64,000 bases of DNA from NCBI RefSeq assembly GCF_050320075.1, contig NZ_CP190018.1; one strand, given 5' to 3'. Source of the DNA: Escherichia coli. Its GTDB lineage: Bacteria; Pseudomonadota; Gammaproteobacteria; Enterobacterales; Enterobacteriaceae. The notes under the pieces are model-generated. The model was not told where the DNA came from. It did not search any database and saw only the letters and a program-made list of their open reading frames with translations. The position numbers and the translations under genes were made by a program. This document shows, in pieces, positions 36,170-44,040 of the stretch (position 1 is its first letter; every line of letters begins with the position of its first letter).

Positions 36170-37063
36170 ATTAGGGGACTGGACAGATTACGTCTCTCCT
36201 CGCTTAACAAGGGCTGACGGAGGGTAATAATTGTCTATAGCTATCTTCTTAGCGATGTCTTTCTGGTATCACATTGGATCGGTGCAATTATTTTTCCTTT
36301 AATACCCATTATGTTAAGAAATTCAGAAACAGCTGTAATCTCATTGTTTTTTTCATTCGTCTTGATCTTCCAAGGAATCTGACTGTGCATTATTGAGAAC
36401 ACACTAATAACGTGAATCGCTCCCTTGCGACGACTCTTGTCATAAGAGTACCGGAGCGTTTTTCCATCAATTGCAATGACGTCTTTATCATCTGAAGAAT
36501 GGCAGTCAAGCATCCAGTTAATAAAGCACTCATAAAATTTTTCAGGACTGATACAGGATACAACTCTGGCAATGGTATCGTGAACAGGAATACCATTATC
36601 AAAATCACCATATTGCTTCAAAAAATCGAGATGTGTTTCCCCAAAATCCTCTATATCTTCCCAGCCTTCTGCACCCGAAATAACGGCACAAATAGTCAAC
36701 AGTAGAATATCCGATAATTTATGTTCCACTTTCCAGGCTTGTCTGTAATCGGGGATAATAGAAATATGTCCCATCAATTTTTTAAGTTCCATTTTGTTCT
36801 CCTTAATTATGTAAGGAGTATTTGATCATGTATACGCAATAAAAAACAGCTTCAGGTAATGAGGAATATCTCAATTGTTAAACATAAAATGCGAATTGTC
36901 TAGTACAAAAAAGCAGCGTTACGTGATCTTTCCGTGGATCGTCAAATTGTTCGAGAGAAAATACCAACATGATGGATTTTACTGTAAAAGTAATGTCGTA
37001 GTTTAAAAACTCATCATCCGGTAAAGCCTTGTGGGGCGTGGGCTTTCATACTTTTACCCTGAT
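36170..37063 (-). mobile_element. Truncated H-repeat (ISAs1-family) element remnant
   Basis: 5' end region (aacatgatggattttactgtaaaagtaatgtcg...cttgtggggcgtgggctttcat) is shared with the second H-rpt copy at about 43700..43800; the coding region breaks off after about 180 codons, next to the cyclase gene stop. Confidence 0.6.
36241..36792 (-). pseudogene. H-repeat-associated (ISAs1-family) transposase, 3'-truncated
   Basis: 183-aa N-terminal fragment ([21 protein letters not shown]...) aligning with the N-terminus of the copy at 42493..43629. Confidence 0.75.
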
Positions 37064-37377: not shown

Positions 37378-37863
37378 TCATATTTTTAATATAGCCCCAT
37401 GAGCTATAGGATCAAAACCTTCTAACCATGAGGTGTTTTTATCGAATAATGCATCTGTTATATTTATATCGCCATATCTATCACATAATAAATTAGCGCC
37501 ACATAAGTCAGCACCAGAAAAATTTGAATCTTTAACGTCTGCATTGCAAAAGGTTGAATTAGTTAATATAGCACCCTCAAAGTTTGCACCTATTGACCTT
37601 GAATTACTAAAGTCACTTCCAGTGAAATCTGAGTTATTAAGAATAGCGTTCATCAGAGCCGCATTGCGAAAGACAGCATTTCTAGTTGATGTATGTTGAA
37701 TCATTACATTTCTTAAATGGGAATTTTCAAATTTCGCCCCATCAAGACAATAACCATTGAGGATGGCACGATGTAGATCCATCCCGCTAAAATCATATCC
37801 AGCAAGAGTGGTACTATCTATATCAAGAAATTTATTGGTTATTAAAAACGCGATTCTTATCAT
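37378..37863 (-). CDS. ydcD: Pentapeptide-repeat protein, probable immunity protein for the Rhs C-terminal toxin
   Basis: 161-aa product made of A(D/N)Lxx-type repeats ([27 protein letters not shown]); its ATG overlaps the rhs TGA (ATGA); AT-rich. Confidence 0.75.
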
Positions 37864-40800
37864 CTATTCCCCCAATCATCTAACTCCGGAAAAATTTGGC
37901 TAAACGGATATAGTGGTGCCGATAATGGACGCGTACCTGGCCGCTCAGGAGGAAGTTTATCACATAACAGACCCGCAACCATCCTGTGATTACCATTAAC
38001 AATCACATTCCCATCCATATCAACCGGTGGTGCTCCACTACCATCTTCCAGCATTTGTACGTAGTGAGCTACTACGGGTACTGAGACTTTTTGTTGTACT
38101 GTCAACAAGGGACTGTTGGCCACAACCATCCTGATGTTTTCAGGTGTCGTAGGTAAACATTTAGTCTTCTCTTGACTAAAGGTATCATCCCACAATTTTG
38201 TTAAACCCATCACTGCCTGTTGTCTGTATTTATCCATGGGGTCAGCAATCAACCAAGATGGACCTGACTGCTCTATGGAATCTTCTCCGGAGAGACCCAA
38301 CGGATCTATCTTAGTAGTTGGATTCAATGGATACTGATACAGGTTCCATGCACCTCTTAGCCCAATGGGATCCTGGGTGATATACCGCCCCTGCAACGGG
38401 TCATAGTACCGGTTGCGGTTATAGTACAGCCCCGACTCCTCATCATACTGCTGCCCCGGCAGACGGTACGGCTGTTGCAGTTGCTGCGCGCTGGTTTCGC
38501 CCAGCAGGTTTCCCCACTCGTCATACTCCCCCTGCCACGCCGTTTCCCCTTCCGGGCTGATGAGCGCCTGCGGCAGCCCCCGGTGGTCGCAGTGGTAAAG
38601 ATGAAGTGTCCTCTCCGGGATGTATTCCGCCTCCATCTGGTTTTTCATCTGTTCCGCCGTCAGCCCGCACTGCTGAAGCCATGCCTCACTCTCCGCACTC
38701 ACCGCACCCGCGCGCAGTTCCCGCTCCAGCCTCCCCAGCATCACCGACAGCTCCGCCGGTAGCGTCACCCCCGTGTCCTCCTGCAACACCTCCGCCAGAC
38801 TCCGGTGCCGCGCCTTCGCCTGTTCACCATTCTCTGTTTCGATTCTGATGAGCGGCGTGAAGCTCCCCGGCTGGTATACCGTCTGGATACGCGTGGTGCC
38901 GGTCTGTACCGTCGTCAGCCTGTCACCGTCCCACCCGTACCAGGTCTCCTCCGGTTTACGCGACAGCGACATCCACCCCGTCAGGTCACGCTCCCGCCGC
39001 CACACCCGTTTCCCCGTCCGGCGGCCCAGCGGGTCATAGAGGTAGCGGCTCTCCACCTGTGGCTCGCCGTGCTGTATCCGCGTGTAGAACACCAGGCGGT
39101 GCTGGCTGTCGTAATGGTAGTGGTGCGTCCGCTCGTCGTGCATCCGTATCACCCCTTCCGGGATACGGTCCGTCTTCTCCGCCAGCCTGCCGTATTCATC
39201 GTAGCGGTAGACATAGTGCGCATCTTCCGTGATGCGGTTATCCGGCCACGCCGTGAAGGTGCTGTCCGGGTGCAGTTCCGGGTCCGGCAGCCGGTTTCCT
39301 GCCGGGTCCGTCGCATACGGGATATCGATATCCAGGTTCGCCGCCGTGGTGTGAACGCCCGTCAGTCTTCCCGTGTCGCTGTAACGGTACTTCCGGCTCT
39401 CCTGCGGGCCGCTGATGCGCACCAGTTGCCCGTTATCGTTCCACGTATACTCACGGTCAAGCTGCGGAAGGTTCAGGTGCCTGCTCCGGAGCTGCCCTGT
39501 GAGGGTGTACGCCGTGGCCTGTTCGTACCCCGCTGTACTGCCCGCCCCGCCGAAGCTGCGGGCCGTCTCACGGTGCAGCCGGTCCCGCGTGTACTCGACC
39601 AGCGGCGTTCCGCCCAGCTTCATCCCCGCAAGATAACCGCTGCCATACGTCAGCCACTCCACCGGCGGCAGACCGTCCGGCTCCTGACGGGTCGCCAGCC
39701 CCTGTTCGCTGTAGACGTGCCTCGTCTCATGCTCCCACAGCATCTCCCCCGTCTCCTGGTTCTCCACCGTCTGCCGTTCGCCCGTCAGGCGGCCTTTATC
39801 GTCATAGCCGTAGTGGACCGCCACACGGTGGCCTTCGCTCAGGTGGCTGATTTCTGTCAGCCAGCCGTGGTCGTCATACTGCCACTGCTCCGCCGGGTCG
39901 CCGTTCACCGTCCGGTGCGTGATGCGCCCGGCGTCATCGTAGTACCACTGCGTGACCTGCCCCTCATCCTCGCTGCGGATGAGCTGCCCTGTGGCGCTGT
40001 ACCGGTAACGCTGTGTCCTGCCGTCAAAGCCGCGCTGCTCCGTCAGCCTGTCCACCGGGTCATACCGGAACGTGGACTGGCTGCCGTTCTCGTTGGTCAG
40101 CACGGTGATGCGCCCGGCGGCGTCATACTCCATGCTGCGCGTCAGTCCGCCCTGCGTGGTGCTGACGGCCTTTCCCCACGCATCATACTGTGTCTCACTC
40201 CGGCTGCCGTTCGGGGCAATGATAGCGGTGAGGTCGCCTGCGGCGCTGTACTCATAACGGGTTTCACGTCCCTGCGCATCCTTCTGACTGACCAGTTGAC
40301 CACGCGGGTTATAACTGCTGTAAGTGCTGATGCCTTCCTCCCGGTGAACCGCCGTCCTCTGACCGTACCGGTCGTATTCATACCGCGTCGTGTACCCTGA
40401 ACAGTCCGTAAATGCCTGAAGCTGACCGTACCGGTTTCGCGTTATTCTCCGCCTCACCCCGGTTCCGTCTTCCACCGCACAGGGCAGGCCACTGCGGGAA
40501 GAATCATAAAACCAGCGCGTAATGTTACCGTTGCGCGAGACCTCTTCCGCCAGCCTGCCCTGACGGTCATATTTCCGGCTGCGGCGCAGCCCGTCCGGGT
40601 ACGTCACTGACGTCAGTTGCAACTGGTTGTTGTAACCATACCGTACCGTCCTGCCGTCCGGCAGTATCACTGAAGTCAGCTTTCCCGACGCCATATGCAG
40701 CCGGTACTCCGTCCGCCGTCCCGCCGCATCCGTCTGCGCCTTCAGCCTCCCCGCCTCATCATACTCGCTGCGGGTGATGCTCCCGTCCCCATACTCCTTC

Positions 40801-42071
40801 TTCACCACCCGCTTCAGGCCGCCCTCGCCCTCCGTGTACAGCACCTCCCGCCGGTTCAGGCTGTCCGTGATGGTCACGCGGTCCTGCCCGTACTCAAAGC
40901 GGTAGTCCAGCCCCTCCGGGTTGACCTGCTCCGTCACCCGACCGGTATCATCATACCGGTAGCGGCTCTCCGGCCTCCCCGCATAATGGTGCGCCACCAT
41001 CCGCCCGGCGTGCTCCGCATCATAAGTAAACCCGCGCACCTGCGTCCCGCTGCGGTCATACACCGCCCGCAGTTCTCCGCTGGCCGTGTACGTGTAGCGC
41101 GCCAGCGGCGCAGTCGGCAGTTCATCCGGGTATGCCGGGTCGTGTGTCAGCCATACCGCCTCCAGCCGGATACCGTTATCGGCACCGTACTCTGTACCGG
41201 TGGGCAGCGTGTCGGGGAAAAACTGAGAAGAGGAAACAGAACGGGGACTGGCCGGAGAAGATAAAGAAGACTCGCGCTGTTTACGGAAGGCTTTCGCCCG
41301 CTGCGCCTGTGTGGTCAGCGCCAGATGAAAACGGCGGCCCGCGCCGTCCGTCACCCCCGTCACCGCGCCCGCCGCTTCCCCCTCTGCCGCCCGGTGGAAG
41401 GCCAGCGTCCGCCCGAAGCCGTCCACCACGCCCGTCAGCACCCGGTATGCGGGCGGCTCCGGCGGCAGCACCTCGTCCGCCTCCGGCACCCGCTCCGGCC
41501 AGCCGAGTATCCACCACGGCCCCTGAAGGCTGTTTGTCGCCAGGTACACATGCGGGCTTAAGCGGAGACTCTCCGGCAGCACCTGCCAGAGCGCGCTTAG
41601 CGGCTGCGAACTGTGCTGCTCCGCCACCCCGCCCCTTGCCAGCCAGAACGACTCGCTGCGGCTGTAGCTTATCTCGCCGGGAAACAGCGGCTCAAAGTGA
41701 ATGCTCCTGCCGCCACTGTCGTTGAGTATCAGTTCCCGCTCATGAACCTGTAAGCGGATATCGAAGGGCGCTTTCCAGCCGGGACCAAACACCCCCACCG
41801 GCGCGGGTGTCCTGGTCCGGTAGCTGCTGTAGGCGCGGGAAAGAATAAACGGCAACGGGCCGGGCAGCGCAAGATCCGTCTCGCCCGGCAGCACCTTCGC
41901 ACCCAGTAGCGGGTTCACCGGGTTACCCTTCTGCTCCTCCACCGGGCTGTTGGGACACACCGAGCAGGCCACTCCCGTCGGCGCACCTATCAGCACCCCC
42001 GCTGAACCCTGCACAATATCCAGTCCCTTGCGGGTCATATCGCCCTGTCGCGCCGCCGGTTTTCCGCTCAT
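37860..42071 (-). CDS. rhsE: Full-length Rhs family polymorphic toxin (PAAR-like N-terminus, YD-repeat shell, variable C-terminal tip)
   Basis: 1403-aa product; N-terminus [13 protein letters not shown] (PAAR-type); many YD repeats; DPIGL core-boundary motif about 175 residues from the C-terminus; GC-rich core with an AT-rich tip. The gene symbol follows K-12 synteny, where this gene is a truncated pseudogene as I recall. Confidence 0.85.
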
Positions 42072-42090
42072 GGTTTATTCCTTAAATTAT

Positions 42091-42282
42091 TTATGGTTTT
42101 ATTCTGAGTGCAATCCATACTGATTCATAACCAGTGAATAAGATTTCCCCGAATAATCTATATAAATTAGCGAAGTCCTCTTCACTAATTAACCGTAAAA
42201 TCCCGTACCAATGAAATATAAAAATAACCACCCACACAAATTTATTGCAAATATTATTTATTATTGTATATACATCATTCAC
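42091..42282 (-). CDS. Hypothetical small hydrophobic protein upstream of rhs (GTG start; may be spurious)
   Basis: 63-codon ORF in a very AT-rich region ending 19 bp before the rhs ATG; no recognisable motif. Confidence 0.3.
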   Translation of the reverse strand: MNDVYTIINNICNKFVWVVIFIFHWYGILRLISEEDFANLYRLFGEILFTGYESVWIALRIKP

Positions 42283-42479
42283 TGAACGTTCTCAAACTGC
42301 ATACCTTAGAACCATCAATTAAAGCCACAACAAAAAAAATCGATTACTTTATGTCGCATGACAAATATGAATTACATATTAATCAACCTTAAAAACAATC
42401 ATCTCTTATAATTAACAGCATACCATGAGAAACACAAAATCAATTTACCATGCATACCAGGAGCATAATTAACCTCTCA

Positions 42480-43802
42480 CCGCAGGGCGAAATCATGAAG
42501 GCCCGCAGCCAGCAAGGATTAGAGAAAGGTATTCATTCTTACGTCCTGCCCGCTTTTGCTTGCGTTTAATACCCGCTTTAAAGCTATTCTCTGCGGTCAG
42601 TAAATTCATCGCGATATGTCGACAAACTGCCAGATTTTCTCCCGCTTCTCCACGAACAATCTGGCATTCATCTTCCCGCATCCCCATATCAAGTCGCCAG
42701 TGCAGTTGATTTTCTACCGACCAGTGTGCTCGTGTTGCTTCCAGGAGTTCTTTCGCCGTAAGCGTCACCGAACTTATGTAGTAGCGAAGAATACACTTCT
42801 CTGATTTCACCGCTGTTTCTCCTTCCTGTCTGCTCGCCAGCACTATTCCTATCGTGCTCAGCTCTGACCATTCATAAGCTAAATCACCCAGAGCGGTTAA
42901 ATCATGGCTCACAATGCAGCATCGTGTATCTTCCCGTCCATGCCCTTTTTCCTGCGTGCTGTAACTGTCATACCTCTCACCCAGCCACATTGTCGGCGAG
43001 TACCCGTTATCAAACGCCTCCGCTAATTTTCCCTGATTTCCTTTCAGCGCCAGCAGGTAACCGGCTTTCTTTTTCAGAATTTCACGGGCGATTATATGCT
43101 GGCAACCCATTGCATCCAGCGTGACCAGACACCCTTTTAATTCCAGCAACTGGAGCCGTTCCGGGATCGCCGTTATCTCATTCGATTTTGCCCCTGTTTT
43201 CACCTGCCCCAAAACCAGACGATTTTCTGCGCTAAAAGCACTGACCCTATGGATCACGGCATTACGTTTCGATTTATCGTAAGTACCCCGTAATGACTTA
43301 CCATCAATCGCCACAACAGAGCCTTCAGACAACGTGTGACAGTCCTTCATCTACTGGATAAAAAGGGGCTGTAATTGTTTTGCTGAAATCATTCCCATCA
43401 CTCGGGCAATCGTGTGATGGGAGGGGGTGCCATTTTCAAAATCACCATACAGGCGTAACCATTCCAGATGCTCCTCACCAAAATCAGCAATTTCTTCCCA
43501 TCCTTCAGCGCCACCGATAATGGCGGTGATCGTCAGAAAAAGGATATCCGCCAGGCTGTAACTGGTTTTCCAGGACTGGCGATAATCGTGAATAATTGAA
43601 ATTTGATCCAAAAGGCTTAGTCCGTTCATGGTGTGCTATCCATCAAAAAGAAAGGATAAGATCACACTGAAATAAGATGGTCAAATTGATCGAAAAAAAA
43701 GATCAACATGATGGGTTTTACGATAAAAGTAATGTCGCGATTTAAAAATTCATCATTCACCAAAGTCTTGTGGGGCGCGGGCTTTCATGCTTTTTCCCTG
43801 AT
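42480..43802 (-). mobile_element. H-repeat (ISAs1-family) element upstream of rhs
   Basis: About 1.3 kb unit holding an ISAs1-type transposase reading frame; 5' end sequence shared with the remnant at about 36900..37063; boundaries approximate. Confidence 0.6.
42493..43629 (-). pseudogene. H-repeat-associated (ISAs1-family) transposase interrupted by an in-frame amber codon
   Basis: ORF-track pieces 43351..43629 and 42493..43350 are contiguous in one frame, separated only by TAG (plus-strand cta at 43351..43353): ...LQPLFIQ*MKDCHTLSEG. Confidence 0.8.
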
Positions 43803-44040
43803 ACGCTACCGCTCTGCCCTGATAACATGATCTGCACGGCGCTATCATATCGACATATTTCTCTACATGCGAAAGGATGTTTTATTTTCGGATTATATTA
43901 AATTGATATTTCATATAAAAAACGAGATTACATAAATCATATAAATAATTGTACCAACTTTAATTACCATTCATAGCAAACAAATGGATGTCCAGTTAAC
44001 TACGCCAGTGATTTATTAACATTAATCTCCGGCATTATTG

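Follow-up and report, generated by a model that had tools for sequence, protein, structure and literature searches.

What lies between an insertion sequence and a toxin gene when the DNA separating them has no recognizable gene, and what does that DNA do for the gene behind it? The question is raised by an rhs gene in a 64,000-nucleotide stretch of Escherichia coli DNA (RefSeq assembly GCF_050320075.1, contig NZ_CP190018.1), which we refer to as the window. An initial annotation of positions 42072-42492 had described a leader directly upstream of rhs that might be a silenced promoter of the H-NS type. It had also pointed to a small ORF in this leader that might encode a membrane protein. The reading that we favor, with rather more confidence than doubt, is that the interval forms a non-coding region 5' of an RhsH-type rhs toxin gene, which a single E. 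coli lineage carries at its RhsE locus, and that it is a probable H-NS-silenced promoter. The coordinates of the relevant features are given in Table 1.

Table 1. Features of the rhs locus in the window, listed by position
Feature	Position	Strand	Remarks
Pentapeptide-repeat protein gene	37378..37863	-	Overlaps the rhs stop; presumed immunity gene; RefSeq WP_000618048.1
rhs	37860..42071	-	1403 aa, intact; RhsH-like core; no vgrG link here
Unique AT-rich leader	42072..42482	-	411 bp, from IS end to rhs ATG; treated as non-coding; presumed rhs promoter/5'-UTR region
rhs ribosome-binding site AAGGAAT	42077..42083	-	Upstream limit of similarity to other rhs genes
GTG ORF	42091..42282	-	Runs from 42282 down to 42091; 63 codons, 63 aa, TAA stop; judged a chance ORF
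Inverted repeat	42165..42190		11-nt arms, 91% complementary, 4-nt loop; also a hairpin in folds
Best sigma-70-like site (predicted)	42267..42295	-	TTGAGA (42295-42290), 17-nt spacer, TATATA (42272-42267)
A8/T8 run	42332..42339		Sole long homopolymer of the leader; one base fewer in strain XJ6.1
ISAs1-family (H-repeat) element	42483..43800	-	1318 bp; transposase gene with an internal stop

Boundaries and composition of the interval

The interval spans 421 bp on the minus strand, starting after the stop codon that ends the ISAs1/H-repeat transposase pseudogene and reaching to the ATG of rhs. The distance of about 420 bp between the H-repeat and rhs, as originally described, therefore stands together with its coordinates, with all features on the minus strand, except that ten of the bases belong to the insertion sequence (IS). 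The interval is thus made up of 411 bp of unique DNA with a GC content of roughly 30%, which we call the leader, and the last 10 bp of the ISAs1/H-repeat element. We set the IS end at 42483 by the terminal inverted repeat and by comparison with K-12 ydcC and with the IS of strain XJ6.1. The terminal inverted repeats, which begin with CAGGG at 42483 and 43800, are imperfect, and no direct repeat that would indicate a target duplication is visible at the flanks of the IS. The transposase contains a DDE_Tnp_1 domain, and its pseudo-CDS, for which RefSeq notes an 'internal stop', has its stop codon at 42493-42495.

The description of the leader as very AT-rich is well founded. The GC content of 42072-42492 is 30.9%, compared with 49.8% for the whole window (69% versus 50% A+T), and just 0.07% of 421-bp segments have a GC content as low; that of the unique leader is 29-31%. 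However, the interval is not rich in homopolymers beyond what this composition produces. Three runs of at least 5 nucleotides were observed, where mononucleotide shuffles lead one to expect 3.1, and the longest run, of 8 nucleotides, is reached in 15% of shuffles. In these terms there is nothing extraordinary about the leader, a non-coding and very AT-rich spacer that separates an insertion sequence from an rhs toxin gene of E. coli.

The rhs gene and its locus

The product of the rhs gene contains the Pfam domains RHS_repeat, DUF6531 and RHS, and that of the overlapping downstream gene matches the Pfam family Pentapeptide (E=1.4e-19). The window holds DNA of the RhsE locus of E. coli, on the ansP-yncG side. 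From the ATG on, the core DNA of rhs is 88% identical to that of the second rhs of strain 602354 (the one followed by 'dsORF-h1') and shares 77% identity with the RhsE core, so we classify the rhs of the window as an RhsH-type unit. In likening it to RhsH we follow the nomenclature of the Hill laboratory and the product name that RefSeq gives in strain 602354, 'RHS element protein dsORF-h1'. In 1998, Wang et al. of the Hill laboratory reportedly described an RhsH element in tandem with RhsE.

In strain 602354 the order of genes is vgrG-rhsE-...-ISAs1-hypothetical-DUF3969-rhs-'dsORF-h1'-ISAs1-pptA. This RhsH-type locus therefore resembles that of the window in its site (ansP-yncG ... pptA), its core and its ISAs1/H-repeat flanks. 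It differs in the C-terminal tip and in the immunity gene, which in the window encodes the pentapeptide-repeat protein, and also in the DNA directly upstream of rhs. In 602354 the gap between ISAs1 and rhs is occupied by a gene for a hypothetical protein of 150 aa and one for a DUF3969 protein of 64 aa, with a GC content of 25-32%, whereas in the window this place is taken by unique non-coding DNA. Moreover, the lineage of the window is missing the vgrG-RhsE unit and yncH. Its rhs gene does not have an adjacent vgrG upstream; an ISAs1 pseudogene and a yncG pseudogene are found there instead. In a third arrangement, that of strain XJ6.1, the order is yncG-yncH-vgrG-rhsE-immunity-ISAs1-leader-rhs-pentapeptide gene, where the DNA that joins the leader is the last 345 bp of the IS of the window.

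Distribution of the leader

Of 5426 complete E. coli genomes searched at the sensitivity of blastn, 144 (less than 3%) contain the leader, in every case with at least 99.5% identity. No version with intermediate or lower identity was found in these 5426 genomes. A probe of 801 bp across the region matched 142 complete genomes in addition to that of strain CFSAN061763, and the best of these matches are 100% identical. A metagenome scan with exact 24-mers yielded nine contigs in which the leader is 100% identical and the order is always yncG-IS-leader-rhs, so none of these nine presents the leader in an IS-free context. In each of the 144 genomes, as in nine of nine metagenome contigs, the leader abuts this same IS end. 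Searches of plasmid and phage collections gave no match.

We also looked for the leader among more distant rhs genes. Relatives were collected using the first 130 residues of the Rhs protein and one genome per species, which gave 29 loci, and the leader is absent from these related rhs loci of other species. It likewise bears no significant resemblance to the K-12 rhsA, rhsB, rhsC and rhsD leaders, for which local alignments scored z<=1.5 against shuffles. The same test gave a z of about 80 for the ~115 bp that the K-12 rhsA and rhsC leaders share, which indicates that the test is able to recognize related leaders. A MAFFT alignment with the rhsA-D leaders had looked suggestive of homology near the ATG, a candidate relationship that the z<=1.5 against shuffles rules out. 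As judged by these comparisons, the leader is without a homologue except for near-identical copies in the same lineage. Because all of the copies are nearly identical, the absence of conservation is not separable from youth.

The limit of similarity among rhs genes

A probe across the start of rhs matched 5668 places in 2916 genomes. Among the matches listed, and setting aside the carriers of the leader, similarity starts at positions from -12 to +5, counted from the A of the start codon (query positions 48-64). The similarity that rhs genes have in common thus begins at the ribosome-binding site AAGGAAT, and the boundaries of similarity in BLAST fall at 42083.

In other species, the upstream DNA is of a different kind. 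The 400 bp upstream of rhs have a GC content of 46-58% and are mutually similar in Escherichia albertii, Citrobacter, Pseudocitrobacter, Phytobacter, Trabulsiella, Lelliottia and Buttiauxella. The Rhs protein of E. albertii is 93% identical to that of the window. In both loci that we examined for the position of vgrG (E. albertii and Citrobacter amalonaticus), this gene ends 50-76 bp before rhs. The neighboring RhsE unit of the E. coli strains XJ6.1 and 602354 also has vgrG upstream of its rhs gene, without such a leader. These vgrG-rhs junctions (those of E. albertii, Citrobacter, Pseudocitrobacter, Trabulsiella and Lelliottia, and of RhsE in XJ6.1 and 602354) have the same ribosome-binding site, AAGGAAT(T), as the window, and their rhs genes encode an N-terminus that is 76-93% identical in protein sequence. 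They differ in that rhs follows the vgrG stop at the short distance given above, behind coding DNA of 46-58% GC, whereas in the window vgrG is absent and its place is taken by the 411 bp of unique, AT-rich DNA and an IS. One rhs core family is thus preceded, in these alignments, by three or more upstream contexts that are unrelated to one another, and every break is placed at the ribosome-binding site.

Origin of the leader

We also considered where the leader might have come from. One explanation is that it is a decayed AT-rich accessory cassette of the Rhs type, with immunity or orphan genes, formerly located between two tandem Rhs units, and that its small ORF is a fragment of a gene. The equivalent position in 602354 is consistent with such an origin, since it holds the hypothetical and DUF3969 genes of similarly low GC content, as is the position of the leader in XJ6.1, where it comes after rhsE, the immunity gene and ISAs1. 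In addition, GC-poor regions downstream of rhs genes were described by Jackson et al. as rich in fragments (PMC2935791). However, neither the leader nor its ORF resembles the 602354 cassette, any Pfam family or any of 1.84 billion representative proteins. We therefore regard a decayed cassette as a tentative proposal, more doubtful than not. This proposal concerns the origin of the leader rather than its present function, and so it is compatible with a silenced promoter.

Promoter-like and H-NS-like sites in the leader

To consider the leader as a promoter, we searched it for sites that RNA polymerase or H-NS might recognize. A scan for strict consensus promoters found none on the minus strand, on which rhs lies, and fewer sites overall than in shuffled sequences. 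With a looser position weight matrix (PWM) of our own construction, the best candidate, TTGAGA-17-TATATA, scores 10.1 bits and matches the consensus at 9 of 12 positions. In the leader of K-12 rhsD, the top site according to this PWM is TTAATA-17-TGTAAT, the one that Shimada et al. list, and its score is equal to that of the best site in our leader. Promoter-like sites of at least 6 bits number 18 in 521 bp. Random pieces of the window contain 5.9 such sites on average, with a 95th percentile of 17, and the same PWM finds 26 for K-12 rhsD; in reading these counts, it should be considered that the PWM is not PlatProm and that the enrichment follows from composition. As to H-NS, there are 5 matches to its 10-mer motif with 2 mismatches in the 421 bp, where the window-wide density would predict about 0.7, and none with fewer than 2 mismatches. 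Both the promoter-like and the H-NS-like matches arise largely because the DNA is 70% A+T.

H-NS prefers DNA of about 70% A+T. With an A+T content some 20 percentage points above the genome average, the leader resembles, at the level of sequence, the H-NS targets and 'promoter islands' of horizontally acquired DNA; it may share with them a dense set of weak promoter-like sites, and it is associated with a mobile, strain-variable toxin locus.

Several observations on other rhs genes can be set beside the leader. In K-12, the spacers between ybbP and rhsD and between yncH and rhsE contain sites for the RpoD holoenzyme, determined by SELEX, that overlap H-NS sites (PMC3946193). The rhsD spacer is also on a list of 'promoter islands', with H-NS (PMC3661553), and the protein-occupancy domain in which rhsC lies is a silenced one (PMC8282354). 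No transcription of full-length rhs is seen in 22 conditions in Salmonella, and SPI-6, the island that contains this gene, is silenced by H-NS (PMC7043789). Like our leader, the K-12 rhsD and rhsE spacers are located directly upstream of an rhs core gene, with no vgrG between. The rhsD spacer is particularly close to the leader in length and composition (~430 bp, 27-28% GC), as well as in its density of promoter-like sites and its top score. The leader differs from both spacers in being bounded by an IS, in occurring in less than 3% of complete genomes and in having no sequence similarity to them. What ties the leader to these spacers is analogy and not homology, as far as alignment can tell.

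A different kind of regulation has been proposed for two other K-12 genes, as a BglJ-RcsB box is predicted for rhsA and rhsB (PMC3950696). Checking the leader by eye, we saw no TTCCTAA-like half-site.

Based on the analogy with the K-12 spacers, it is plausible that the leader is an H-NS-silenced rhs promoter. Transcription of rhs would start inside the leader, which is the most likely arrangement given that rhs is intact, has no upstream operon partner and lies behind an IS pseudogene. If the candidate TTGAGA-17-TATATA drives rhs, the resulting 5' UTR would be ~190 nt long. H-NS would coat the leader, as its A+T content makes most likely, and rhs would be silent under ordinary growth, as has been reported for the equally AT-rich rhsD and rhsE leaders of K-12.

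The leader as a possible inert spacer

The main rival to a silenced promoter is that the leader is an inert spacer whose native promoter was lost to the IS or to a rearrangement, such that rhs is either untranscribed or read through from the co-oriented transposase gene or from yncG. The fact that an IS end abuts the leader in every genome and metagenome contig found is in keeping with this explanation, and because an IS stands at the distal end of every copy, the native upstream part may have been removed, perhaps together with the original promoter. The missing target duplication points in the same direction, as it suggests a rearrangement rather than a simple insertion. Furthermore, the IS, yncG and rhs are all co-oriented, and the hairpin that we found at the IS end is only a weak match to a terminator. 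The strict scan also found no strong consensus promoter. As for a promoter created at the junction of IS and leader, the PWM scan revealed none there.

Other observations speak against an inert leader. The rhs reading frame is intact across its 1403 codons, and the leader contains a promoter-like site equal in score to the one listed for K-12 rhsD, along with weaker sites that appear to be dense. In addition, we infer that the internal stop in the transposase gene would expose read-through transcripts to Rho. We consider it unlikely that the leader is inert, and a silenced promoter remains our preferred explanation.

The small ORF

As first described, a GTG ORF of 63 codons ends 19 bp short of rhs. 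This is confirmed: a TAA codon terminates the ORF, and exactly 19 bases (42090-42072) separate it from the rhs ATG. It had been left open whether the ORF is a genuine small membrane protein or noise, and our results favor noise. An ORF of at least 63 codons arises in 12.7% of 2000 dinucleotide-preserving shuffles (p=0.13). The product is hydrophobic, as had been stated, with a GRAVY of 0.62; however, this is no more than the composition yields, since the expectation from shuffles for stop-free stretches of the T-rich strand is 0.57 (sd 0.50). Upstream of the GTG there is a weak ribosome-binding site of the GAG type and nothing better. The GTG is also upstream of the -10 element of the best promoter candidate, so that a transcript from that promoter would not carry the start of the ORF.

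Comparative evidence also argues against a protein. When 5.8 billion protein clusters were searched by word index, the sole hit was the ORF itself, from E. coli. With phmmer, run in full against 1.84 billion representative proteins, the hits were again the ORF and, besides it, two of the compositional type with no aligned stretch. There are no matches in Pfam even at E<=10, and there is no similarity to the DUF3969 ORF at the equivalent position of strain 602354. RefSeq annotates nothing beneath the leader in any of the listed genomes. Two non-RefSeq annotations label the ORF as a hypothetical protein. Conservation of the frame in other rhs loci had been proposed as a check, and it gives the clearest possible negative, because a homologous leader is absent altogether from the related loci. 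Within the lineage, the aligned sequences contain two SNPs in the ORF, namely 42259 (I8M, in XJ6.1) and 42206 (Y26C, in PRO_A), and both are nonsynonymous, although the argument against coding that can be drawn from them leans on two changes only.

The small ORF is best explained by chance. The competing view, that it encodes a genuine lineage-specific small membrane protein, such as a young gene or a uORF that modulates translation of rhs, can appeal to the existence of the ORF, to its one hydrophobic stretch of 19 residues (FVWVVIFIFHWYGILRLIS, KD 1.82), to its end just ahead of the rhs ATG and to the two hypothetical-protein labels. Set against its chance-level length and hydrophobicity, its GTG start with a poor ribosome-binding site, its lack of relatives and of RefSeq annotation, its two nonsynonymous SNPs and the position of the promoter candidate 3' of its start codon, these points leave the membrane protein very improbable. 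Equally improbable is a very young, lineage-restricted hydrophobic protein or regulatory uORF that arose inside AT-rich silenced DNA. If such a young ORF were real, translation just before the start of rhs would influence the expression of the Rhs toxin or the protection from it.

The idea that the leader encodes a structured regulatory RNA (a riboswitch, a thermosensor or a small RNA) has an almost negligible probability, since, despite a local 11-bp hairpin and a fold of the proximal 209 nt with a z of -1.88 (10 of 200 shuffles were as good), the whole leader folds no better than its shuffles (z -0.37), and Rfam gave no match at E<=1 in 41800-44200.

Implications for rhs genes

By itself, the leader matters little. 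It adds to the cases in E. coli where an rhs toxin gene has no vgrG partner and lies behind AT-rich DNA of the kind that H-NS silences. Across 2916 E. coli genomes, similarity among rhs genes halts sharply at the ribosome-binding site, and the DNA upstream of rhs is swapped wholesale, whether it consists of vgrG, of gene cassettes or of unique AT-rich leaders. Jackson et al. noted that the conditions under which rhs-associated proteins are expressed are hard to define (PMC2935791). Should the leader prove to be a promoter under H-NS control, this would help to explain when 'orphan' Rhs toxins get made.

The junction between ISAs1 and the rhs leader

The element of the H-repeat family (ISAs1) that adjoins the leader ends in terminal inverted repeats that match imperfectly, and no direct repeat flanks it. 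In E. coli strain XJ6.1, which carries a fuller version of the same locus, only the last ~345 bp of the window-type ISAs1 are present, and a different, complete ISAs1 copy adjoins them (both within L010:11733-13212). The IS-leader junction thus predates both arrangements. A second, co-oriented fragment lies downstream of rhs and its pentapeptide gene, so that directly oriented H-repeat copies bracket the rhs unit.

Features of the rhs loci and of the other AT-rich stretch
Feature	Location	Description
ISAs1 element upstream of leader	window 42483-43800	imperfect terminal inverted repeats beginning CAGGG
Second ISAs1 fragment (5' end of element)	window 36593-37061	83% identical, same orientation; downstream of rhs-pentapeptide pair
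7-codon mini-ORF	window 42279-42306	minus strand; ATG CAG TTT GAG AAC GTT CAG TGA, preceded by AAGG
Alternative leader, DUF3969 region	L035:725-1084 = L040:7725-8084	directly upstream of rhs
OmpC-family porin and two leucine-rich-repeat proteins	encoded in window 17291-21600	upstream of narU

Variation within and behind the leader

Within the leader, the TGA stop of a mini-ORF overlaps the GTG start of the 63-codon ORF (GTGA), which is probably a coincidence. An A8/T8 run (window 42332-42339) is one base shorter in XJ6.1; because rhs is frameshifted in the same assembly, this difference may be a sequencing error and not true length variation. In two metagenome contigs (L042 and L044) the leader is 100% identical, and the rhs core is only 92-93% identical to window 38300-42000. 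This points either to recombination of the core while the leader stays invariant, or to chimeric assemblies of the metagenomes.

Other rhs leaders

About 600 E. coli genomes have an alternative type of rhs leader at a query coverage of at least 80%. Its 64-aa ORF is what follows the N-terminal half of a DUF3969 protein, namely the C-terminal half; the N-terminal half is broken by an in-frame stop after an A-run. Probably an accessory or immunity gene has decayed here. In K-12 (rhsA, rhsB and rhsC leaders, L004-L006), the rhsA and rhsC leaders have in common ~115 bp immediately before the ATG. One block of this stretch, TAAATAT(T)TTCCTAA, recurs in the rhsB leader. This agrees with the prediction of BglJ-RcsB sites for rhsA and rhsB (PMC3950696). 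Unlike these K-12 leaders, the window leader lacks the block. The window is strongly AT-rich in one other place (17291-21600, 30-33% GC), which is the counterpart of the K-12 yddL-yddK-yddJ region.

Apparent deletions at rhs loci

In strain 602354 the window-type rhs start is repeated on its own as a 58-bp piece (L040:12956-13013; -12 to +46, 95% identical), located downstream of dsORF-h1 and followed by an ISAs1 fragment. This piece looks like what a third rhs unit left behind when it was deleted. Comparable rhs-start pieces of 53-60 bp, unannotated, occur in other genomes (probe matches H110-H113).

On the yncG side of the window, the only stretch between yncG and the IS (43801-44040) that also occurs in K-12 and XJ6.1 is a 37-bp island (43801-43837, GTGCAGATCATGTTATCAGGG..GCGGTAGCGTAT); in the window lineage, yncG is a pseudogene and yncH is missing. 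In K-12, the truncated rhsE is directly preceded by the sequence that forms the vgrG leader in XJ6.1, so a single deletion removed both vgrG and the 5' half of rhsE from K-12.
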